Shown here piece after piece: positions 4,275 to 33,169 of a DNA stretch of 36,024 nucleotides. Origin of the DNA: a virus (Duplodnaviria; Heunggongvirae; Uroviricota; Caudoviricetes); the IMG/VR virus record IMGVR_UViG_2778261396_000003, one strand, 5' to 3'. Made by a program: the position numbers and the translations under genes. Numbering within the stretch: position 1 is the stretch's first letter; every line of letters starts with the position of its first letter. The notes under the pieces are model-generated. The model saw nothing but the letters and a program-made list of their open reading frames with translations. It searched no databases and was not told where the DNA came from.

Positions 4275-4571
4275 ATGCTGACGAAAGAACCATCATTTGC
4301 ATCGCTGCTGGTAAAACAAAGCCCGGCAATGCACTACGGTCACGGCTGGATCACGGGTGAGGATGGAAAACGCTGGCATCCATGTCATTCACAAGATGAA
4401 TTGCTGTCTGAATTGACCACGAGGAAACGGAGAAAGTCCAAATGTATGCGGCAGAAAGTGAAGTGGTTTATCAGTTTCGTTACAGAGGGGAGAGTTATTC
4501 AGTACCTGAAGATGATTTGCTCTGTTGCTATCCGTCATTGTCGGGCGATGGCAGTTACTTTTTCACGTTAA
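4275..4571 (+). CDS. Hypothetical early protein (98 aa as drawn); C-terminal third looks like out-of-frame read-through
   Basis: ATG 4275 preceded by GAGGTG; K/R/C-rich tail overlaps the next ORF in another frame. Confidence 0.3.
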   Translation: MLTKEPSFASLLVKQSPAMHYGHGWITGEDGKRWHPCHSQDELLSELTTRKRRKSKCMRQKVKWFISFVTEGRVIQYLKMICSVAIRHCRAMAVTFSR

Positions 4572-4666
4572 AGGATGGGACGTTTTTACGGGGAGAGCAG
4601 GTTAAAGAGACGATACGAAAAAATGTATCTCCTCTTGAGCGTTACCGTAAGAACAAAGAACGATAG
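4442..4666 (+). CDS. Hypothetical early protein (74 aa)
   Basis: Protein-like translation MYAAESEVVYQFRYRGESYSVPEDD...; overlaps the 3' end of the preceding ORF in +1 frame. Confidence 0.4.
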   Translation: MYAAESEVVYQFRYRGESYSVPEDDLLCCYPSLSGDGSYFFTLKDGTFLRGEQVKETIRKNVSPLERYRKNKER

Positions 4667-4688
4667 CTGCGTTTGGGGGATATGAAGT

Positions 4689-5030
4689 ATGGCAATTAAT
4701 GGCGCTGCAGCAACTGTTCCATTAAGCCCCGGTGAACGCCTGAATGGACTTAATCACATTGCGGAGTTAAGGGCGAAAGTTTTTGGCCTGAATATTGAGT
4801 CAGAGCTTGAGCGGTTTATTAAAGATATGCGTGATCCACGGGATATCAATAATGAACAAAATAAACGGGCACTGGCTGCCATATTCTTTATGGCAAAAAT
4901 TCCAGCTGAACGTCATAGCATCAGCATTAATGAGCTGACCACTGACGAAAAGCGGGAGCTGATTAAAGCAATGAATCATTTTCGTGCAGTGGTGAGCTTA
5001 TTTCCCAGACGGCTAACCATGCCGAATTAA
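4689..5030 (+). CDS. Hypothetical early-operon protein (113 aa)
   Basis: Intact ORF co-oriented in early operon; no family recognised. Confidence 0.5.
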   Translation: MAINGAAATVPLSPGERLNGLNHIAELRAKVFGLNIESELERFIKDMRDPRDINNEQNKRALAAIFFMAKIPAERHSISINELTTDEKRELIKAMNHFRAVVSLFPRRLTMPN

Positions 5031-5558: not shown

Positions 5559-6412
5559 GCACCATCCTGAAATGGGCGGGAAATAAAACCGCCATTATGC
5601 CAGAACTGAAAAAATACCTTCCTGCTGGCCCGCGACTGGTTGAACCTTTCGCGGGTTCCTGTGCTGTGATGATGGAAACGGATTATCCCAGCTATCTGGT
5701 TGCGGATATTAATCCTGATTTAATCAACCTCTATAAAAAGGTTGCCGCTGATTGTGAATCGTTTATATCTCGCGCCAGAGTTTTATTTGAGATCGCAAAC
5801 AGGGAGGTGGCTTATTACAACATAAGGCAGGAGTTTAACTGCTCAACTGAAATTACTGATTTCATGAAAGCGGTATATTTCCTGTATCTCAATCGTCACG
5901 GTTACCGTGGTTTATGTCGCTATAACAAGAGCGGGCATTTCAACATTCCCTACGGTAATTATAAAAATCCGTATTTCCCTGAAAAAGAACTTCGCACATT
6001 TGCAGAAAAAGCCCAGCGAGCAACGTTTATCTGCGCCAGCTTTGATGAAACGCTGGCGATGTTGAAGGCGGGAGATGTGGTGTATTGCGATCCGCCATAT
6101 GACGGTACGTTTTCCGGCTATCACACTGATGGTTTCACTGAAGATGACCAGTATCACCTGGCATCCGTTCTTGAACATCGGTCATCAGAAGGACATCCGG
6201 TCATTGTTTCTAACAGTGACACATCCCTGATCCGTTCGCTGTATCGCAATTTTACTCACCACTATATCAAGGTAAAACGCAGCATCGGTGTGGCAGCTGG
6301 CGAGGGTAAATCAGCAACAGAAATCATTGCTGTTTCCGGGCCGCGCTGCTGGATGGGATTTGATTATTCGCGTGGCGTGGATAGTTCTGCCGTGTACGGA
6401 GTACGTGCATGA
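5555..6412 (+). CDS. dam: Dam-type N6-adenine DNA methyltransferase, 285 aa
   Basis: N-terminal LKWAGNK, FAGSCAV (AdoMet motif) and catalytic DPPY; ATG 5555 preceded by GGAGGTG; stop overlaps A start. Confidence 0.85.
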
Positions 6413-8823
6413 GTCATGCCGATATGAACAACTGCTGCGGCTTTAACGAGGCTGCCGCAGCATTCTCATGGAACAGCCCGAAAAAGGCCATTAACCCTTA
6501 TCTGGACCCGGCGGAAGTTGCGCCGGTTTCTACGCTTTCAAACCTGATCACTCTGTACGCTGCCGATAACGAGCAGGAACAGTTGCGCCGCGAGGCACTG
6601 AGTGATCAGGTCTGGGAGCGTTATTTCTTTAATGAATCACGTGATCCTGTCCAGCGCGAAATGGAGCAGGATAAGCTCATTAGCCGGGCAAAGCTGGCGC
6701 ATGAGCAGCAGCGTTTTAATTCAGACATGGTCATTCTGGCGGACGTCAACGCCCAGCCTTCCCATATCAGCAAGCCGCTGATGCAACGTATTGAATACTT
6801 CAGCAGCCTGGGCAGGCCAAAGGCTTATTCCCGCTATTTACGTGAGACGATTAAGCCATGTCTGGAACGACTGGAGCATGTACGCGACAGTCAGCTATCT
6901 GCATCTTTTCGCTTTATGGCAAGCCATGAAGGGCTGGACGGCCTGCTGATCCTGCCTGAAATGAGTCAGGATCAGGTGAAACGCCTGTCCACCCTGGTAG
7001 CTGCGCATATGAGTATGTGCCTTGATGCAGCTTGTGGTGATTTGTATGCCACCGATGACGTTAAGCCAGAAGAAATCCGCAAGACATGGGAAAAGGTGGC
7101 AGCGGAAACCCTGCGTCTGGATGTCATCCCACCTGCGTTTGAGCAACTCCGTCGGAAAAGAAACCGCCGTAAACCCGTGCCCTATGAACTCATTCCGGGT
7201 TCGCTGGCGCGTATGTTGTGCGCCGACTGGTGGTATCGGAAATTATGGAAGATGCGTTGCGAATGGCGGGAAGAGCAGTTGCGCGCTGTTTGCCTGGTCA
7301 GCAAAAAAGCATCTCCTTATGTCAGCTATGAAGCCGTGATGCATAAACGTGAGCAGCGCCGTAAGTCGCTGGAGTTTTTCCGTTCTCATGAACTGGTGAA
7401 CGAAGACGGCGACACGCTGGACATGGAGGATGTGGTAAACGCCAGCAGCAGCAACCCTGCGCATCGCCGCAATGAGATGATGGCCTGTGTTAAAGGTCTG
7501 GAGCTTATCGCGGAAATGCGCGGTGACTGCGCCGTTTTTTACACTATCACCTGTCCGTCGCGTTTCCATTCCACGCTAAATAACGGCAGACCAAACCCGA
7601 CCTGGACAAACGCGACGGTAAGACAAAGCAGCGATTATCTGGTCGGCATGTTTGCTGCATTTCGTAAGGCGATGCACAAAGCCGGGTTGCGCTGGTATGG
7701 CGTGCGGGTGGCTGAGCCGCATCATGACGGCACAGTTCACTGGCACCTGTTGTGTTTCATGCGCAAAAAAGACCGCCGTGCCATTACTGCATTACTGCGT
7801 AAGTTTGCCATCCGTGAAGACCGCGAGGAGCTGGGCAATAACACTGGGCCGCGCTTTAAGTCTGAGTTGATTAACCCGCGCAAAGGAACGCCGACAAGCT
7901 ACATCGCGAAATATATCAGTAAGAACATTGACGGTCGTGGTCTGGCTGGCGAGATCAGCAAGGAAACGGGTAAATCTCTGCGTGATAACGCTGAATACGT
8001 GAATGCCTGGGCGTCTCTGCATCGTGTTCAGCAATTCCGCTTCTTTGGTATTCCGGGGCGTCAGGCTTATCGTGAACTTCGCTTGCTGGCTGGTCAGGCG
8101 GCAAGGCAACAGGGTGACAAAAAAGCAGGTGCGCCGGTACTGGATAACCCGCGTCTTGATGCCATTCTGGCTGCTGCTGATGCTGGCTGTTTTGCCACCT
8201 ACATCATGAAGCAGGGCGGCGTGCTGGTTCCCCGCAAATATCACCTTATCAGAACAGCTTATGAAATTAACGAAGAGCCGACCGCCTATGGCGATCACGG
8301 TATTCGTATTTATGGCATCTGGTCACCCATTGCAGAGGGCAAGATCTGCACTCATGCCGTGAAGTGGAAAATGGTTCGTAAGGCCGTTGACGTTCAGGAG
8401 GCGGCAGCCGACCAGGGCGCTTGCGCCCCTTGGACTCGTGGCAATAACTGTCCCCTTGCTGAAAATTTGTACCAACAAGGGAAAGACAAATCAGCTGATG
8501 GGGATACCAGAACGGATATCACCCGCATGGATGACAAGGAGTTGCACGATTACCTGCACTGTATGAACAAAAAAGAGCGCCGGGAACTGGCAGCAAGATT
8601 ACGCCTGGTTAAACCGAAACGGCGTAAAGACTACAAACAGCGAATTACAGAGCATCAGCGTCAGCAGCTCGTCTATGAACTGAAGTCCAGAGGATTTGAT
8701 GGCAGCGAGAAAGAGGTCGATTTGCTCCTTCGCGGTGGCAGTATTCCGTCAGGAGCAGGCCTGCGTATCTTCTATCGGAACCAGCGTTTGCAGGAAGATG
8801 ATAAGTGGCGGAACCTGTATTAA
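6409..8823 (+). CDS. A: P2 gpA-type rolling-circle replication initiator (HUH endonuclease), 804 aa
   Basis: HUH motif [10 protein letters not shown] and paired-tyrosine motif [13 protein letters not shown]; size and position as P2 A. Confidence 0.9.
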
Positions 8824-8915: not shown

Positions 8916-8935
8916 TACTGTAAATATAAACAGTG
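8916..8935 (+). promoter_or_regulatory. LexA (SOS) box TACTGTAAATATAAACAGTG
   Basis: Matches CTGT-N8-ACAG exactly, with AT-rich spacer and flanking TA/TG as in consensus TACTGT(AT)4ACAGTA; lies just upstream of a two-gene module. Confidence 0.65.
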
Positions 8936-8976: not shown

Positions 8977-9165
8977 ATGCAGGACTATTTTTTGGAGTCT
9001 TTGAAGCTCCAGCGCATTGATTTTTTTCTTAAGCTTGTAGCGGCTAGTGAGTGTAGTGATGAAGAGAAGGGGCTGGCTCTGCAGTGGGTTTCTGAATTGA
9101 CAGATGAACTCATGGCAAAAATCAGAAGCCACGAATACAACCGCTCAATGGATGTCATCAACTGA
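8977..9165 (+). CDS. Small SOS-controlled protein (62 aa), possible Tum-like antirepressor component
   Basis: ATG 8977 preceded by AGGAGG; sits between LexA box and DinI-like gene. The ORF-track start at 8875 would place the LexA box inside the ORF. Confidence 0.45.
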   Translation: MQDYFLESLKLQRIDFFLKLVAASECSDEEKGLALQWVSELTDELMAKIRSHEYNRSMDVIN

Positions 9166-9175
9166 GGTGACTTTT

Positions 9176-9409
9176 ATGCGCATTGAAATAATGATCGATA
9201 AAGAGCAGAAGATTAGCCAGTCTATCCTGGACGCCCTTGAATCCGAGCTTTACCGCAATCTGCGCCCCCTGTATCCCAAAACGGTAATTCGTATCCGCAA
9301 AGGTAGCTCTAACGGTGTGGAACTGACCGGACTGCAACTGGACGAAGAAAGAAAACAAGTGATGAAAATTATGCAGAAGGTGTGGGAAGACGACAGCTGG
9401 CTGCATTAA
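9176..9409 (+). CDS. DinI-family protein (77 aa)
   Basis: MRIEIMIDK...ILDALESELYRNL...EERKQVMKIMQKVWEDDSW aligns by eye to E. coli DinI (MRIEVTIAK...IDALAGELSRRI...KQRISEILQETWESADDWF); ATG preceded by GAGGTGA. Confidence 0.7.
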   Translation: MRIEIMIDKEQKISQSILDALESELYRNLRPLYPKTVIRIRKGSSNGVELTGLQLDEERKQVMKIMQKVWEDDSWLH

Positions 9410-9612
9410 GAAACGTTGCTGGCGTCTGAACTTGCTTCTGGCGTCAGCAAGGTTGAACAACGAGCTGTGCGAGGCGTTAGCTCTGTGGTGCATGTCTATG
9501 CCGCATGAGATCGCATGATCGTTTGAGGATCGTTTTTGCTAAGGCCTGCCAGAACTGGCGGGCTTTTGCGTAGATCATGCAGGTGCATGAAAACCACTAC
9601 ATAAAGCGGGCA

Positions 9613-9631
9613 GGCGTGGCGGGGATACGAG
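9613..9631. other. Candidate cos (cohesive-end) site GGCGTGGCGGGGATACGAG
   Basis: First 13 nt match the 186 cohesive end as I recall it (GGCGTGGCGGGGAAAGCAT); located between the replication region and Q, where P2/186 cos lies. Confidence 0.4.
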
Positions 9632-9749
9632 CGCGCGCTGTGCTGTGTGGTATAGGCCTTAATTTAGTATGATTCAATAGTGTCGGGAGCTTTGCGCTGA
9701 TCAGTCCTAAGTTATATGATAAGAAAAATGCATAAAAAAGGTTCGGTTC

Positions 9750-10724
9750 ATGGGGTTAGGATTAAAAGACGCTATTGTGCATACCGCTGCGTTTCATCAA
9801 AAGGAAACTAATGAATTGCAATTGCCAAACAATCATTGGCATCCTGGTTTTATCACTGTCTTAGCAGCTTACGTGAATCATCACAAAATTACCGAAGATA
9901 ACTGTGTTTTGTCATGCCCTGGCTATATGCGAGCTATCAATTTACATGGTGCTTTATGGGGAGAGGATCAGTATCAACAGGAACGTGTAAATGTTGGAAG
10001 AAATTACAGTTTGGTTACAGCATTAACCAATGTTGAAGCTGTTGACGTTGCCACTGGTAGTATTAACAGTTGTGTAAGGCAGTTAACATTCCCTGATCGT
10101 GATCCGAGAGATTGTCCCAAGGGACTTACAGATCTAACCCATGTTATAGGTGAGCTTCACGATAACGTTTGGTCGCATGGAAAATCAACGGGTTTTTCTT
10201 TTGCACAACGTTCGGCTGTACCCCACACTCAAAAAAAAGAGCACTATTTAGAATTTTCTTTGGCGGACTGTGGGTTAGGATTTCTCCGAGAATTGCGGCG
10301 AGCTGGTATACCCGGAATTGAGACTCACCAGGATGCGATCGCATGGTGTATTCAAGAGGGACATTCATCTAAGCATGCTGATTTGCAGGATGATTGGGCA
10401 CAGCAGCTTCCCCAGGACTTTATTGGGGGTAGTGTGTTTGGCCACGGGGTTTCGGTCAAAGAAAAAGATAATAATCATCAAGGGCTTGGGTTGTATCACT
10501 TGATGAAATTGATAAAAACATATAACGGGGAATTGCAACTGGCTTCAGGAAATGTATGCTTAGAAGCAATAGGTGATGAAGTGAGCTATACTGAATTACG
10601 TACTGAATGGCCGGGTGTAGCAATTTCTTGCCGTTTTAAGATTCATGAACTGGCAGTCGATAAAGATAGCGAAGAAAATGACCCTCAGCTTATGGAAATA
10701 ATGCGGGCGTTAGGAGGAGAGTAA
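9750..10724 (+). CDS. GHKL/Bergerat-fold ATPase (histidine-kinase-like ATP-binding domain) with ~130-aa unique N-terminal region, 324 aa
   Basis: N-box-like ELHDNVWSH, G1-like DCGLG, G2-like GLGLYHL, read from the translation; sampled GC ~37%; stop overlaps next start (TAATG). Confidence 0.75.
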   Translation: MGLGLKDAIVHTAAFHQKETNELQLPNNHWHPGFITVLAAYVNHHKITEDNCVLSCPGYMRAINLHGALWGEDQYQQERVNVGRNYSLVTALTNVEAVDVATGSINSCVRQLTFPDRDPRDCPKGLTDLTHVIGELHDNVWSHGKSTGFSFAQRSAVPHTQKKEHYLEFSLADCGLGFLRELRRAGIPGIETHQDAIAWCIQEGHSSKHADLQDDWAQQLPQDFIGGSVFGHGVSVKEKDNNHQGLGLYHLMKLIKTYNGELQLASGNVCLEAIGDEVSYTELRTEWPGVAISCRFKIHELAVDKDSEENDPQLMEIMRALGGE

Positions 10725-11062
10725 TGAACAAAATCGCATACAAGTTACCCGAGGGTGACCTGGCTTCGCGCAATCAGGCTATCCCCCAACGACACAAGAT
10801 TGAAGGGTTCATTAAAGAAGGGTATACCGTAGATTTAGATCTGAGCGGTGTTTATTCAATTTCAGAATCATACTCTGATGAAATCTTTGGTGTTTTGGTA
10901 GTGAAATTCGGTGTAACCAAAGTTTTGAGTCAAGTTAAGGTTCGCAATGCACCCCCTTCAATTTTAAAAAGTATTGCAAAAGTGATCCAACGCCGTAGTA
11001 ATGAAGTAGCATCAAAAAAGGTTCATTCCGTTGGATTTGATGGTTTATACGCCGTTTGTTAA
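10724..11062 (+). CDS. Small protein (112 aa), tentatively STAS-like (DUF4325-type)
   Basis: Translationally coupled to the upstream ATPase; size and predicted alternation of hydrophobic strands consistent with a STAS-type fold, but the domain call is from memory only. Confidence 0.65.
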   Translation: MNKIAYKLPEGDLASRNQAIPQRHKIEGFIKEGYTVDLDLSGVYSISESYSDEIFGVLVVKFGVTKVLSQVKVRNAPPSILKSIAKVIQRRSNEVASKKVHSVGFDGLYAVC

Positions 11063-11079
11063 TATATGGTTAGTTAGAT

Positions 11080-11110
11080 AAAAGGCGCTGAGATTAGCGC
11101 CTTTTCTTTT
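11080..11110. terminator. Bidirectional rho-independent terminator hairpin AAAAGGCGCT-GAGATT-AGCGCCTTTT between the accessory pair and convergent Q
   Basis: GC stem flanked by A-run on one side and T-run on the other. Confidence 0.6.
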
Positions 11111-12149
11111 ATTCCTGAACACCTAAAACATAGTCATCAAAACGTATTACTTCTGCACCCACCCATTCGTTTAGTTCATGTAGTCGCTTCTGTAGTGGCA
11201 TCAATTCATTGCGAACAAATACAAGACTAGCCTTCTCCACATCCCCAAAACCCCCAACATTATTTGGCATAATCCCCATCATCTGTGGCGGAACGCGATG
11301 TGCTGCCATCATGTCATCGCGGCTGACATTTTTGATATTCAGAAACTCATCCTTCGCCGCAACTTCTGACAAAGGGATGATCTGAAGGCCGTCCTTTTTG
11401 CCGTTAGGCGAGTACATAAACAGGTTGCGGAAGTTGCCTGGACCTTTGGCGCTTTTCATCGCGTTGCGGAGATTGTTCACATCCTCCTGATTCTGCGCGG
11501 CGTCGGTCATGTACATGATGAAGCCTGCATGGCTGCCGTTGATGTAATACTTACGGCGGAACAGCGTGGCGGACTCATTGAGCAGGGCTGACGGAATGGC
11601 AGAAAGATAGCCGGGCAGGCCGTAGATCTCCTGGTTAATGTCCGGTTCCATCAGATGAAAGATGCTGCCTTTCGTGAACTGATACGGCTGTGTTGTCATA
11701 CCGTATTGCACAAACCAGTAGGTATCCAGGTCTAACCCGCGTCGTGTGTATTTCGCCAAGGCAGGTTCAAGGGCGATAACTTCACCGAAGCGGTTCGTGC
11801 GTTTCTCCAGGTAGGCGTTACCAAATACCAGATAGTCTTGCACAAAACGCGAAAAAGCCTGCTGGCTGAGCAGCGGATGAGGGATATAGGTACTGGTCAG
11901 AATGTTGCACTTTACTGCAATCGGGGAACTGTGATGCACGGCGGCGCGGAAGGTGCGCGCCAGTCCGTCAAAGCTGACGGGCGGCTCATACCAACGGTCC
12001 ATCTGTATGCATTCCACATAGTCCAGTAATTCTCGGCGGTCCAGAACAGGAACGGGATCGCCGAAGCTGAATGCTTCGGCTGAAGTCTGGCTTTTATACT
12101 GGATGTGATTCATCGCCGCAGCGCGGTTTTTCTTACTCTTTCCCATCAA
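11109..12149 (-). CDS. Q: Portal protein (P2 gpQ-like), 346 aa
   Basis: Size, position and orientation upstream of terminase large subunit as in P2. Confidence 0.85.
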   Translation of the reverse strand: MMGKSKKNRAAAMNHIQYKSQTSAEAFSFGDPVPVLDRRELLDYVECIQMDRWYEPPVSFDGLARTFRAAVHHSSPIAVKCNILTSTYIPHPLLSQQAFSRFVQDYLVFGNAYLEKRTNRFGEVIALEPALAKYTRRGLDLDTYWFVQYGMTTQPYQFTKGSIFHLMEPDINQEIYGLPGYLSAIPSALLNESATLFRRKYYINGSHAGFIMYMTDAAQNQEDVNNLRNAMKSAKGPGNFRNLFMYSPNGKKDGLQIIPLSEVAAKDEFLNIKNVSRDDMMAAHRVPPQMMGIMPNNVGGFGDVEKASLVFVRNELMPLQKRLHELNEWVGAEVIRFDDYVLGVQE

Positions 12150-22358: not shown

Positions 22359-23854
22359 GCACAAAATTTTATACCCTGCTGACGGATATTGGCGCGGCGA
22401 AACTTGCCAGCGCCGCCGCGCTCGGTGTGCCGCTAAAAATTACCCATATGGCGGTGGGCGATGGCGGCGGAGTATTGCCAACGCCGGACGCAAAGCAGAC
22501 GGCACTGGTAAATGAGAAACGCCGGGCTGCGCTGAATATGCTTTATATCGACCCGCAGAATAGCAGCCAGATTATTGCTGAACAGGTGATCCCTGAAAAC
22601 GAGGGCGGTTGGTGGATACGTGAAGTGGGCCTGTTTGATGAGTCCGGGGCATTGATTGCCGTGGGCAACTGCCCGGAAAGCTATAAGCCGCAACTGGCTG
22701 AAGGCAGCGGGCGCACCCAGACCGTGCGCATGGTGCTGATTACCAGCAGTACGGACAATATCACCCTGAAAATCGACCCTGCTGTAGTGCTGGCAACCCG
22801 CAAGTATGTGGATGACAAGGTACTGGAGCTGAAGGTGTACGTGGATGACCTGATGGCAAAACATCTTGCTGCACAGGACCCACATTCACAGTACGCGCCA
22901 AAAGCCAGCCCGACATTTACCGGAACCCCCAAAGCGCCAACGCCAGCGGCGGGGAATAATACCACGCAGGTTGCGACCACTGCGTTTGTACAGGCGGCAC
23001 TGACGGCCCTTATTAATGGTGCGCCAGCCACGCTGGACACGCTGAAAGAAATAGCCGCAGCCATTAACAATGATCCGAATTTCAGTACCACCATTAACAA
23101 TGCGCTGGCACTAAAAGCACCGTTGTCGAGTCCGGCACTCACCGGAACGCCAACAGCCCCCACGGCGGCGCAGTCGGTCAACAATACACAGATTGCCACC
23201 ACGGCTTTTGTGAAATCAGCAATTGCGGCAATGGTGGGTTCTGCCCCTGCGGCACTGGATACACTGAATGAACTGGCGGCGGCGCTGGGGAATGACCCTA
23301 ACTTTTCAACAACAGTGCTTAATGCACTGGCAGGCAAACAACCGCTGGACAATACGCTTACTAATTTGAGTGGAAAGGATGTGGCTGGTCTTCTCGCATA
23401 CCTTGGTTTGGGAGAAGGCTCTGCATTACCTGTTGGTGTCCCTGTTCCGTGGCCTTCAGCTACGCCGCCAACAGGCTGGCTGAAATGCAATGGCGCTGCC
23501 TTTGATAAGGTTAAATATCCCCGTCTTGCTACAGCATATCCATCAGGGAAACTACCTGATCTCCGCGGTGAGTTTATTCGTGGCTGGGATGATGGGCGCG
23601 GCATTGATACAGGGCGTGCTTTATTGAGTATTCAGAGTGATGAAGTCAGAAAGCTCGCATTAAAATACTGGGGACCAGCTTCAATCGGTTCACCATCAAA
23701 AACATTTGCACTCAGCGAAAGTGCCGGTGGCGGGTTGTACACGGATGGAATAAGTCAGGCAAGCGGTGGGATTATCAACGCTTTTCAGCTCCCCGGCGGG
23801 AGTGAAACCCGTCCACGAAATATTGCATTTAACTATATCGTGAGGGCTGCATAA
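22355..23854 (+). CDS. H: Tail fibre protein (P2 gpH-like), 499 aa; constant N-terminal part plus variable C-terminus inside the invertible segment (current orientation)
   Basis: Position, size, and internally duplicated NDPNFSTT-containing units; the 26-bp crossover site falls at codons ~346-354 (LGLGEG). Confidence 0.85.
   Translation: MSTKFYTLLTDIGAAKLASAAALGVPLKITHMAVGDGGGVLPTPDAKQTALVNEKRRAALNMLYIDPQNSSQIIAEQVIPENEGGWWIREVGLFDESGALIAVGNCPESYKPQLAEGSGRTQTVRMVLITSSTDNITLKIDPAVVLATRKYVDDKVLELKVYVDDLMAKHLAAQDPHSQYAPKASPTFTGTPKAPTPAAGNNTTQVATTAFVQAALTALINGAPATLDTLKEIAAAINNDPNFSTTINNALALKAPLSSPALTGTPTAPTAAQSVNNTQIATTAFVKSAIAAMVGSAPAALDTLNELAAALGNDPNFSTTVLNALAGKQPLDNTLTNLSGKDVAGLLAYLGLGEGSALPVGVPVPWPSATPPTGWLKCNGAAFDKVKYPRLATAYPSGKLPDLRGEFIRGWDDGRGIDTGRALLSIQSDEVRKLALKYWGPASIGSPSKTFALSESAGGGLYTDGISQASGGIINAFQLPGGSETRPRNIAFNYIVRAA
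22904..23347 (+). repeat. Tandem internal duplication in H (two ~74-codon units, aa 184-257 and 258-331)
   Basis: ..TGTPKAPTPAAGNNTTQVATTAFV..GAPATLDTLKEIAAAINNDPNFSTT..ALALKAPL vs ..TGTPTAPTAAQSVNNTQIATTAFV..SAPAALDTLNELAAALGNDPNFSTT..ALAGKQPL; diverged at nucleotide level. Confidence 0.6.
23391..23416. other. Left 26-bp crossover site of tail-fibre invertible segment (gix/hix-like): TTCTCGCATACCTTGGTTTGGGAGAA
   Basis: Matches the reverse complement of the site at 25233-25258 at 21/26 positions, including an identical 14-bp arm TTGGTTTGGGAGAA. Confidence 0.6.
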
Positions 23855-24456
23855 TGGATAACGCCGTATTAAATAGCGAGCTTATTGCCACGAAGGCGGG
23901 GAATATTACCGTCTATAACTATGATGGTGAAACTCGGGAATATATTTCCACATCAAATGAATATCTTGCCATTGGTGTCGGTATCCCTGCATATTCCTGT
24001 TTAGATGCGCCAGTTACACATAAAGCTGGTTATGCTATCTGCCGCTCAGCAGATTTTAACTCATGGGAATATGTGCCAGACCATCGCGGTGAAATCGTCT
24101 ATAGCACAGAAACAGGAGAATCAAAAGAAATCACAGCTCCGGGTGATTACCCTGAAAATACAACCACTATCGCCCCTTTATCTCCATACGATAAATGGGA
24201 TGGTGAGAAATGGGTGACCGATACTGAGGCACAGCATAGCGCCGCAGTCGAAGCGGCAGAAGCACAGCGCCAGTCACTGATTGATGCTGCTATGGCTTCC
24301 ATCAGTCTGATTCAACTGAAATTGCAGGCCGGACGGAAACTGACGCAGGCAGAAACAACCCGACTTAACGCCGTGCTGGATTACACTGACGCGGTGACGG
24401 CAACAGATACCAGCACCGCGCCGGATGTCATCTGGCCTGAACTGCCGGAGGCGTAG
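23854..24456 (+). CDS. G: Tail fibre assembly chaperone (P2 gpG-like), 200 aa, inside invertible segment
   Basis: Immediately follows H; convergent with a second assembly gene. Confidence 0.75.
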   Translation: MDNAVLNSELIATKAGNITVYNYDGETREYISTSNEYLAIGVGIPAYSCLDAPVTHKAGYAICRSADFNSWEYVPDHRGEIVYSTETGESKEITAPGDYPENTTTIAPLSPYDKWDGEKWVTDTEAQHSAAVEAAEAQRQSLIDAAMASISLIQLKLQAGRKLTQAETTRLNAVLDYTDAVTATDTSTAPDVIWPELPEA

Positions 24457-24868
24457 GCCATTCAATATCTGGAGCACTGGAAATATCAACCATTTCCAGT
24501 GCGTCCAGATAATCAAGCCATGAATTATATTGCGCCAGTTCCTCACCTTTCAGACGACCAATAGCAGCCTTTCCTGGCCACTGCTTACTGTTAATATATT
24601 CATTAACTCGATTTATGAGTGCCTGTTTTTTTCGTTCCGCTTCTGACAGTTGTTCTTCATGAGTTAGCGGCGGTACGTCATCCCATGCAGGATAGCCATC
24701 ATCACCCGCAACTCTCACCTTCCCTGGAGGTGAGGACAGGTACTTAATAAATATATCCTCATCAACTTCAACTCCATTATGAGGCCATAACCCAGACTCC
24801 TTATACTGACTTTCCAGAGTAAATGGGTAAAACATATTAGTTTTAGCATCGTAAAGATATTTACTCAT
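24428..24868 (-). CDS. Alternative tail fibre assembly chaperone (G'), 146 aa
   Basis: ATG at 24868 (minus strand) preceded by AGGAAG; convergent and overlapping G by 29 nt; follows the alternative H C-terminal exon. Confidence 0.7.
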   Translation of the reverse strand: MSKYLYDAKTNMFYPFTLESQYKESGLWPHNGVEVDEDIFIKYLSSPPGKVRVAGDDGYPAWDDVPPLTHEEQLSEAERKKQALINRVNEYINSKQWPGKAAIGRLKGEELAQYNSWLDYLDALEMVDISSAPDIEWPTPPAVQAR

Positions 24869-24869
24869 T

Positions 24870-25245
24870 TTATCTTCCTGTAGCAAACCAGCGGCAACCA
24901 GCGACAGTTGGAACATTGAAGGATGGATTTCCTTTATCAAGAGATCCCAGGTTCTCTGCTATGACATTTGAGTTAGTCAATTTATAGAATTGCCATACTG
25001 ACATTTTCCCTGCCACAGGAGCCTGGTCATGTTCATTAATAGAAATGACGGCTGTCGGAAATGGGATAGGAAAATTAATCAAAACTTCATTTGTTGTGGC
25101 CCCAGTTAGCCCCCATTGTTCAATATAACCATCCGGGCTTCGCCTCCATCCCGTCGTTGTATCTCCCCCACACTCCCACGCTGACATATCAGGAATTTGG
25201 TTTTGCCCGTTACCCACATCCCGTTTTGCCGCTTCTCCCAAACCA
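24870..25245 (-). other. Promoter-less alternative C-terminal tail-fibre exon (Hv'), fused in frame to H after inversion
   Basis: Minus-strand ORF with no plausible start of its own; its translation crosses the right crossover site with the same ..GLGE.. junction as H. Confidence 0.6.
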
Positions 25246-25258
25246 ACGTTTATGAAAA
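25233..25258. other. Right 26-bp crossover site of invertible segment: TTCTCCCAAACCAACGTTTATGAAAA
   Basis: Resembles hixL/gix as recalled (TTCTTGAAAACCAAGGTTTTTGATAA); inverted relative to 23391-23416; ~55 bp upstream of invertase. Confidence 0.6.
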
Positions 25259-25313
25259 TGCAGAGATAACGGCTAACTGGCATCATCCCCGGTTTTTATT
25301 CAGGGGATTGATC

Positions 25314-25880
25314 ATGCTTATTGGCTATGTACGCGTGTCAACAAATGACCAGAACACCGATTTGCAACGTAATGCACTGAACTGCGCGGGATGTGAGCGG
25401 ATTTTTGAGGACAAAATCAGTGGCACTAAGTCCGACAGACCGGGACTGAAAAAACTGCTCAGGACATTATCGGCAGGTGACACTCTGGTTGTCTGGAAGC
25501 TGGACAGGTTGGGGCGCAGTATGCGGCATCTCGTTACGCTGATAGAAGAGCTGCGCCAGCGTGGCGTGAATTTCCGAAGCCTGACTGACAGTATTGATAC
25601 CAGTACCCCAATGGGCCGTTTCTTTTTTCATGTCATGGGGGCCCTGGCTGAAATGGAGCGCGAACTGATAGTTGAACGTACCAGGGCGGGGCTGGCTGCA
25701 GCTCGCGCCAAAGGCAGAGTAGGTGGACGCCGTCCTAAGTTGATCACCGAACAGTGGGCACAGATTGGACGTTTACTCGAGGCCGGAGAATCAAGACAGC
25801 GTATTGCACTGATTTTTGATGTAGGTGTTTCCACAATTTATAGAAAATTTCCGGCAAATAAGAGCAATGAATCCCCCTGA
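25314..25880 (+). CDS. Serine DNA invertase (Hin/Gin/Pin/Cin family), 188 aa
   Basis: N-terminal catalytic motif MLIGYVRVSTNDQNTDLQ and C-terminal HTH (GESRQRIALIFDVGVSTIYR); internal ATG chosen over ORF-track start 25197. Confidence 0.9.
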   Translation: MLIGYVRVSTNDQNTDLQRNALNCAGCERIFEDKISGTKSDRPGLKKLLRTLSAGDTLVVWKLDRLGRSMRHLVTLIEELRQRGVNFRSLTDSIDTSTPMGRFFFHVMGALAEMERELIVERTRAGLAAARAKGRVGGRRPKLITEQWAQIGRLLEAGESRQRIALIFDVGVSTIYRKFPANKSNESP

Positions 25881-32860: not shown

Positions 32861-32950
32861 TTCTTCGCAATGGAGAACTTTTAAGTTTGCAAAATGGAAT
32901 AATGCGGTATCATTATTGTGAATTTAGCAAAAATGGGGAGAACTCGAAAA

Positions 32951-33169
32951 ATGATGATTTGCCCACTGTGTGGAAGTGCCGCCCATACTCGCAGCAGTTT
33001 TCAGGTATCTTCATTGACCAAAGAGCGTTACAACCAGTGCCAGAACATTAACTGCAGCCATACTTTTGTTACCCATGAAACTTTTGTTCGTTCGATTGCA
33101 ACGCCAAAAGAGTCAAATCCGGTTCAGCCGCATCCAATGAAATCAGGACAGGTGGCGCTCTCTCTTTGA
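32951..33169 (+). CDS. ogr: Late-gene transcriptional activator, zinc-finger Ogr/Delta family, 72 aa
   Basis: MMICPLCGSAAHTRSS...KERYNQCQNINCSHTF...PHPMKSGQ resembles P2 Ogr as recalled (CPLC...CQNVNC); last phage gene before the host junction. Confidence 0.8.
   Translation: MMICPLCGSAAHTRSSFQVSSLTKERYNQCQNINCSHTFVTHETFVRSIATPKESNPVQPHPMKSGQVALSL

Follow-up and report, generated by a model that had tools for sequence, protein, structure and literature searches.

A putative kinase-STAS gene pair without a linked effector in the cos-proximal hotspot of a P2-like prophage

Switches built from a GHKL kinase and a STAS-domain partner were shown to control bacterial immunity only in 2026, each through a visible output, the repressor domain of CapS or the PIN toxin VapC. 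In the work of Chambers et al. (EMBO J 2026; PMC13373217), CapK, a helix-turn-helix (HTH)-STAS-GHKL protein activated by single-stranded DNA (ssDNA), phosphorylates the repressor CapS (STAS-winged HTH, wHTH) on a serine in helix 2. CapK and CapS are transcriptional controllers of adjacent immune operons, and capKS is reported to be associated with restriction-modification (R-M). In VapKSC, the STAS-GHKL protein VapK phosphorylates the antitoxin VapS, a STAS domain with a short tail, and thereby frees the PIN toxin VapC; the system gives approximately 2-log protection against one phage. In neither CapKS nor VapKSC is the kinase a toxin; it acts as the sensor. Here we describe a cassette of two genes, A and B, in a 36,024-nt stretch of viral DNA (IMG/VR record IMGVR_UViG_2778261396_000003; "the window" hereafter denotes this whole stretch), which is a P2/186-like Escherichia coli prophage between rcdA and ybjL. 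Together, A and B constitute a distinct, effector-less branch of the CapK/VapK kinase-STAS switches. The initial annotation of this DNA, made from the sequence alone, had not recognised the pair as any named defence system; kinase-STAS immune modules are now characterised in the form of CapK/CapS and VapK/VapS/VapC.

The A/B family retains the sensor-switch core without an output gene and yet is strictly conserved and under strong purifying selection. Finding the target of A/B would reveal either that STAS switches can control targets in trans or that GHKL kinases can serve as immune effectors, and would give a function to a 'hypothetical protein' that recurs as cargo in a well-studied defence hotspot.

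Proteins A and B resemble VapK and VapS

Gene A (9750-10724, + strand; WP_004011553) encodes a protein of 324 amino acids (aa) with a variable N-terminal alpha/beta domain and a SpoIIAB/VapK-type GHKL kinase domain, and gene B (10724-11062, + strand; WP_032175284) encodes a 112-aa STAS-like protein of the DUF4325 family. Profile comparisons, for which the VapK and VapS sequences were taken from the model file of Chambers et al., indicate that A and B are remote homologues of VapK and VapS. The A-family profile aligned with that of the VapK family over 130 columns spanning the whole kinase domain (hhalign 92.9%, E = 3.7e-7), and the B-family profile aligned with that of the VapS family without gaps over 65 columns (77.6%, E = 1.9e-5); VapS is itself a DUF4325 protein (Pfam E = 2.7e-17). 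The loci are also organised alike, in that a kinase gene is followed by one for a DUF4325 protein of ~112-116 aa with a short C-terminal tail, an extra domain lies N-terminal to the kinase, and there is an association with mobile and immune loci. We consider it very probable that the module is a kinase plus STAS pair.

Several features nonetheless separate A/B from VapKSC. The PIN toxin gene vapC is present in 6/6 VapK loci, which were fetched as a positive control for the PIN search and carry kinase, DUF4325 and PIN genes in tandem, but in 0/81 A/B loci (19 informative loci from species-representative genomes and 62 IMG/VR viral contigs). The homology is remote, the N-terminal domains do not align and a conserved insertion in the ATP lid is found in A only. 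In addition, the serine column of the VapS motif 'FASPFF' is variable in B and has invariant serines on both sides, and B is basic (pI 9.4). Three of the six VapK control loci (L094, L096 and L097) lie directly 3' of the methylase and specificity genes of type I R-M systems, which recalls the R-M association of capKS, and two are followed by a Fic protein.

The initial annotation had noted Bergerat-fold ATPase motifs in the right order in protein A. All are present, and in an alignment of 42 family members D173, N139, H143, G175, G177, G245 and G247 are invariant and E135 is almost so. The N-box ELHDNVWSH (residues 135-143; 10152-10178, + strand) has the form ExxxNxxxH (E135-L-H-D-N139-V-W-S-H143), which is shared with VapK (EIYANSFEH). 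The G1 box D173-C-G-L-G177 (residues 173-177) lies at 10266-10280 (+ strand) and the G2 box H243-Q-G-L-G-L248 at 10476-10493 (+ strand); within the latter H243, L246 and L248 are invariant as well, and the string GLGLYHL corresponds to residues 245-251. Likeness to VapK extends beyond these generic boxes to a clade motif, W199-C-I-Q-E-G-H/N-S-S-K208 (10344-10373, + strand; W199, C200 and K208 invariant), the counterpart of which in VapK is W-A-C-Q-S-G-N-T-T (shared form W-x-C-Q-x-G-N-S/T). In the hhalign alignments this motif pairs with W, G and T columns that are invariant in the VapK family. The lid insertion, of ~30-40 residues (~205-244; 10362-10481, + strand), is family-specific and falls opposite a gap in VapK in the hhalign alignments. 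It is conserved at D214, W216, Q218, P221, G226 and N241, with 83% identity among close relatives, and has low confidence in the structure model.

In its predicted structure, protein A is a Bergerat alpha/beta sandwich, the GHKL fold, for which SpoIIAB was the best structural match. RsbW, the RsbW domain of Rv1364c, UsfX/RsbW and SiaB also matched, at least as well as sensor histidine kinases did. GHL ATPases (topoisomerase II, MutL, Hsp90 and MORC) matched only at large root-mean-square deviation, and A is without a transducer domain; a search of the BFVD structures with A returned generic GHKL matches only. On sequence and model, A is best read as a predicted serine/threonine protein kinase that belongs, within the GHKL superfamily, to the SpoIIAB/CapK/VapK branch.

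The N-terminal domain of A (residues 1-92; 9750-10025, + strand) evolves fast. Mean identity to the window copy is 44% in this domain and 39% in the C-terminal tail, compared to 66% in the catalytic core. Fold searches gave weak STAS-like signals, and the domain is possibly a degenerate STAS-like sensor; profile-profile alignment detected no homology to the STAS domain of VapK. Pfam identified no HTH in protein A, whose N-terminal domain begins at residue 1 and occupies ~92 aa. The protein is acidic (pI 5.6). The combination of a variable N-terminal domain and a conserved lid insertion fits a sensor-plus-catalytic design.

Protein B, tentatively described as STAS-like in the initial annotation, scores 36.8 bits against Pfam DUF4325 ('STAS-like domain') over residues 26-79, above the cutoff of 23. 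Its 112 residues consist of DUF4325 and a ~20-aa tail and contain no DNA-binding domain or winged HTH. A candidate phospho-acceptor cluster, S47-E48-S49-Y-S-D52-E53 (10862-10882, + strand), lies at the predicted start of STAS helix 2; S47, S49, D52 and E53 are invariant in 44/44 sequences, and position 48 is variable, being Glu in 36/44. In Enterobacterales the tail (residues 93-112; window 11000-11059) is variable and has a conserved aromatic-Ala-x-Cys end (YAVC, WATC, LATC), and many homologues, from Pseudomonas, Acinetobacter and Marinobacter, are without it. B also gave a local match to positions 314-397 of the 1750-position PADLOC model for DrmA (PDLC02567; 21.9 bits, E = 4.7e-6). Some DrmA proteins of DISARM may embed a DUF4325-like domain, as this sequence similarity suggests.

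Among other described pairs, CapK-CapS resembles A/B in that the gene for a SpoIIAB-like GHKL kinase comes first, beside a STAS gene, and in the proposed phosphorylation of a helix-2 serine. Unlike CapK and CapS, however, A lacks an N-terminal HTH and B lacks a winged HTH, so B cannot be a repressor of the CapS type. Nor does an operon follow B, which is succeeded instead by a terminator and the convergent portal gene. SpoIIAB-SpoIIAA and RsbW-RsbV share with A/B the closest fold, the ExxxNxxxH N-box and an adjacent gene for a STAS-type antagonist. The kinases of these pairs and of SiaB-SiaC are only ~140-170 aa long, whereas A, at 324 aa, has extra domains. Further differences from partner-switching modules are that the partner is a DUF4325 protein and not a canonical STAS protein, and that A/B is prophage cargo. 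The cassette contains no sigma factor or PP2C phosphatase, and no recurrent neighbour was seen in the 19 genome loci. Of the partner-switching architecture originally suggested, the GHKL protein with SpoIIAB as best structural match and the STAS-like partner thus stand, but the classical form is unsupported because both sigma factor and phosphatase are missing.

System 69 of the P4-satellite hotspot (HATPase_c plus DUF4325; Rousset et al. 2022, Table S1) likewise encodes GHKL and DUF4325 proteins in a cos-adjacent hotspot, but has three genes, one of them for a predicted membrane protein. A relationship between A and the system 69 kinase was rejected at an hhalign probability of 2.9%.

The two genes are strictly linked and under purifying selection

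At 90% identity the full-length members of the A family fall into 295 clusters; at 50% identity, 163 representatives have E <= 1e-30. They are called 'hypothetical' wherever the source names them and have no Pfam hit on record. A homologue of B lies directly 3' of A in 19/19 genome loci, in which the identity of A to the window protein falls as low as 36%, in 62/62 viral loci and in a further group of loci (L022-L027). Such strict linkage shows that the adjacency of A and B is not due to chance. Both genes are intact in 62/62 viral loci, and dN/dS relative to diverged copies is 0.03-0.13 for A and B. Gene A is split by a frameshift, with B intact, in two cases (L021 and H35).

These selection and distribution data effectively refute the idea that A/B is what remains of a VapKSC-like system in decay, deprived of its toxin and no longer functional. 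Although the architecture is indeed that of VapK and VapS minus VapC, the intact genes and low dN/dS, the depth of a distinct family with 163 clusters at 50% identity, the family's own conserved lid insertion and promoter, and the lack of any A/B member with a PIN gene all speak against decay.

No recurrent third gene was found beside A/B in the 19 genome and 62 viral loci by all-versus-all clustering of neighbours, Pfam and PADLOC searches of 90 neighbour proteins and phmmer with VapC. Carriers include P2-like phages, lambdoid prophages and other mobile elements in Gamma- and Betaproteobacteria. In 39/62 viral loci a P2-type portal gene lies <=1.5 kb 3' of the cassette, which is therefore in the same slot as in the window, and among isolated phages the P2-like Ralstonia RSA1 and Burkholderia vB_SBP7 have A homologues near the genome end. 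In RSA1 (L092; NC_009382) only ORF51, the A homologue, is annotated; we located an unannotated B homologue (MKSIAF...DLASR...SMSESYADEAFGVL...) at ~4385-4747, close to the genome end and after int/attP. In Salmonella enterica (L023-L027) the pair, at 53% identity, occupies a moron slot of a P22-like prophage, flanked by the Q antiterminator/Bro-N region and the holin gene, with the HigBA module (HigB/HTH toxin-antitoxin) ~2 kb upstream. Cassette neighbours in other genomes include integrases, transposases, a resolvase and R-M methylases (2-3 loci).

The two genes do not always diverge in step. In one locus (L062) the cassette is mosaic relative to the window, with 89% nucleotide identity for B and 72% for A, and the published example of the hotspot catalogue entry discussed below shows the same pattern. 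The mismatch suggests recombination, or else faster evolution of A, mostly in its N-terminal domain.

The cassette is mobile cargo of the P2 hotspot

The prophage carries genes for integrase, CI, CII and gpA, followed by those for portal Q, terminase P and the head, tail and lysis functions. The interval from replication gene A of P2 nomenclature (gpA; 6409-8823) to portal gene Q (11109-12149, minus strand), which is convergent with the cassette, contains a 62-aa open reading frame (ORF; PHROG 698), a DinI-like gene, a cos-type site and genes A and B. The cassette is thus in the gpA-gpQ cos-proximal P2 hotspot, and its flanks and the cos motif bear out the placement originally given. The cos-type core motif GGCGTGGCGGGG (9613-9624, no strand assigned) marks the left cargo boundary, outside the cassette; it occurs once in the window, against a chance expectation of 0.01. 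For Salmonella phage SEN8, the linear record stops at the equivalent of window position 9612. Together with the motif at 9613-9624, this places the cargo between cos and Q, at the left end of the packaged DNA. Similarity to other P2-like phages ends at ~9640-9645, which delimits an acquired segment of ~9646-11075.

Within this slot the cassette is a self-contained, horizontally mobile moron. It is present in 19/5,426 complete E. coli genomes, whereas its flanking sequence is common to 1,277, which identifies it as variable cargo and not as conserved core of P2-like prophages and agrees with the horizontal acquisition initially proposed. GC content is 42.6% in gene A, 39.8% in gene B and 41.6% across 9632-11110, compared to 51.5% in the window, 52.8% in gpA and 50.6% in the portal gene (flanking phage genes 50.6-56.5%). 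The lower GC content reported at first therefore holds, at ~10 points under the window, but the accompanying figure of ~37% does not.

The gpA-gpQ cos-proximal region is a described defence hotspot in which 18,150 loci showed 1,650 arrangements, and more than one third of the P2-hotspot systems that were cloned were active (Rousset et al. 2022, PMC9122126). Table S5 of that study lists WP_004011553 together with WP_032175284, the RefSeq accessions of genes A and B. Its summary entry reads 'system 112, DUF4325', with 28 occurrences, an empty comment field and the large protein given as 'hypothetical'; in the summary example B is ~90% and A ~70-75% identical to the window copies, as judged by eye. 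The A/B pair is system 112 of the Rousset 2022 P2-hotspot catalogue. Accordingly, the view that the pair was uncharacterised and not a named system survives in so far as no PADLOC model matches it, but the pair had already been catalogued.

PADLOC-DB v2.0.0 holds no system model for A or B, and none of its models was significant for either protein. A matched PDC-M65A weakly and locally (13.3 bits); this match and the DrmA segment matched by B (21.9 bits) were rejected as local or insignificant. NCBIfam gave no match for A or B. Searches of Protein Data Bank (PDB) sequences with single sequences and profiles gave no real hits for either protein, so the crystallised VapS and CapS are too distant for HMMER. 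The literature that we searched mentions DUF4325 without a functional account and contained nothing joining 'partner-switching' with 'anti-phage'.

The cassette has its own expression signals

The unit, predicted to be co-transcribed, consists of promoter, A, B and terminator. A sigma-70-like promoter is predicted at 9692-9720 (+ strand), with -35 TTGCGC (9692-9697), a 17-nt spacer and -10 TATGAT (9715-9720). Because a strict sigma-70 consensus scan 5' of gene A yielded no promoter, this assignment is a prediction from cross-locus conservation. When the upstream regions of carriers with protein identities as low as 58% were aligned, the TTTGC and ATAT.AT columns were invariant or almost so, and the conserved form, -35 TTGC(G/T/C)C, 17-nt spacer and -10 TAT(G/C/T)AT, travels with the cassette. 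The ribosome-binding region of gene A, AAAAAAGG (9736-9743, + strand), contains AAAGG conserved 7-10 nt before the ATG in the same alignment. The stop codon of A and the start codon of B share 1 nt (TAATG), an overlap also found in 35/62 viral homologous loci. A hairpin at 11080-11105 (no strand assigned; 11-bp stem with 5 GC pairs and a T-rich tail) sits between the convergent stops of B (11062) and the portal gene (11109) and is a predicted terminator common to gene B (+) and portal Q (-). The analysis thus recovered the two same-strand ORFs of 324 and 112 aa, their overlap and the bidirectional terminator immediately after B that had been annotated at the outset. Including its native promoter the cassette measures ~1.4 kb and is directly clonable.

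The promoter also bears on a counter-defence role, in which A or B would protect the phage by disrupting host STAS-gated immunity, for example as a surrogate VapS-like antitoxin or by mis-phosphorylation of host CapS or VapS. Carriage by bona fide virions (the isolated phages RSA1 and vB_SBP7) and the Pfam family that B shares with the antitoxin VapS would be consistent with such a role. We nevertheless judge it highly improbable: the predicted constitutive-type promoter of the cassette suits expression in a lysogen, the characterised cargo of the hotspot is defensive, A/B is also found outside phages, and B is remote from VapS and without the conserved FASPFF surface.

A perfect match to the LexA-box consensus, CTGTAAATATAAACAG (8918-8933), lies just 5' of the 62-aa ORF (8977-9165) and the DinI-like ORF (9176-9409; Pfam DinI, E = 1e-22). 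These two genes look like an SOS-controlled, Tum-like operon directed at cos and the A/B cassette. The box is the sole perfect one in the window, and none lies directly 5' of gene A; one box per window is not rare by chance, as 51/100 shuffles also give one. A hairpin followed by a T-run at ~9543-9575 may block read-through from the DinI-like operon.

The position of the cassette just 3' of this LexA-box-controlled operon would suit a regulatory partner switch that tunes host or prophage expression, perhaps through sequestration of a sigma factor or regulator or through an effect on prophage induction after DNA damage, and that is not anti-phage. SpoIIAB, whose fold is closest to that of A, is an anti-sigma factor, and CapK and CapS are themselves transcriptional controllers (PMC13373217). 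We regard this explanation as quite unlikely, given that B has no DNA-binding domain, A has no HTH, and neither a sigma factor nor a PP2C phosphatase is linked to them. Moreover, the cassette is an infrequent, variable occupant of the hotspot and not a core element, and it moves among unrelated phages and non-phage sites, which implies that its target is not specific to one prophage.

A proposed phospho-switch with an output in trans

The best explanation overall, to which we assign a probability of roughly 0.5, is that A/B would be an infection- or damage-triggered kinase-STAS phospho-switch that works with an effector in trans and protects the lysogen from superinfection. In this scheme A and B would be made in a fixed ratio and form a complex. 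A cue associated with infection or DNA damage would be sensed by the N-terminal domain or lid of A and would activate the kinase. In the CapK/VapK relatives this cue is ssDNA, which is possibly the trigger here too, but the sensing domain of A is not conserved with that of CapK/VapK and we hold ssDNA to be a doubtful candidate. Active A would phosphorylate B in the cluster of invariant serines (S47/S49) where STAS helix 2 begins, and, by analogy with the characterised pairs, a kinase-substrate relation from A to B seems fairly likely. Phosphorylation would then change the binding partner of B. As neither a toxin nor a DNA-binding domain is encoded, the output must act in trans or through the kinase; it would fall on a host or invading-phage protein, or proceed via A itself, and result in superinfection exclusion. 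For a defence role of the cassette as such, we see the odds as about even. Fold, family relationships, strict linkage of the two genes, selection, mobility and position in the hotspot are established by the sequence analysis, whereas kinase activity towards B, the trigger, the output in trans and the anti-phage role are parts of the proposal.

Several results weigh against this explanation. Protein A scores only 13.6 bits against Pfam HATPase_c, below the cutoff of 26.4, so that of the two domain assignments initially made, B passes by hidden Markov model (DUF4325) and A does not; the characterised VapK also falls under the HATPase_c cutoff, at 23.4 bits. The phospho-serine of VapS (S48 in 'FASPFF') is invariant and falls opposite position 48 of B, mostly Glu, with a register uncertainty of one residue in the alignment of the serines. 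The acceptor would consequently be a neighbouring serine, or B is perhaps a pseudo-substrate and no substrate at all. No VapC homologue or PIN gene was found near A/B in any of the 81 loci, and with no effector in these loci the output step is one that we purely infer. Some genomic contexts of A/B consist of plain housekeeping genes. Finally, neither the DUF4325 name nor the A and B sequences match any entry in the table of tested systems of Rousset et al. (Table S2).

Some of these observations could instead indicate that A is a toxin kinase acting on essential host or phage proteins and that B is its tightly bound pseudo-substrate antitoxin, the two forming an abortive-infection or addiction module in which A would stay inactive until the displacement or degradation of B. 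A Glu-dominated phospho-serine column is what a non-phosphorylatable mimic would have, no other effector is encoded in the 81 loci, and gene order and translational coupling are like those of toxin-antitoxin pairs. The loci with a split gene A and an intact gene B, and the Salmonella pair beside HigBA, point in the same direction. On the other hand, the invariance of S47 and S49 suggests a genuine acceptor, and we know of no SpoIIAB-type kinase that is a toxin. In the characterised relatives, too, the kinase is a sensor (PMC13373217). On balance a toxin kinase appears unlikely.

We attach a similarly low probability to A/B being a complete immune system with the GHKL kinase as its weapon. B would gate A, and A released upon infection would phosphorylate phage or host proteins in trans; in a variant of this reading, A/B would plug into an unlinked host effector. 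If A were such a weapon, it would be the first SpoIIAB-type (non-Hanks) protein kinase to act as an anti-phage effector, and its N-terminal domain and lid insertion would be a new trigger-recognition unit.

Other features of the prophage

The tail-fibre region (~23854-25880) contains tail-fibre-assembly and gp53-like ORFs in opposite orientation together with a serine recombinase, which the related RefSeq record calls a 'recombinase family protein', and the GC content of the region dips to 42%. It looks like an invertible host-range segment. E. coli EEC_W5 (NZ_CM130020.1) matches the window at 100% identity across the cassette, though not along the full length of the window, and within the tail-fibre region the coordinates of the two drift by ~330 bp. 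The window has an intact ORF for the ogr/Delta-like gene (32918-33169), which is frameshifted in the annotation of NZ_CM130020.1.

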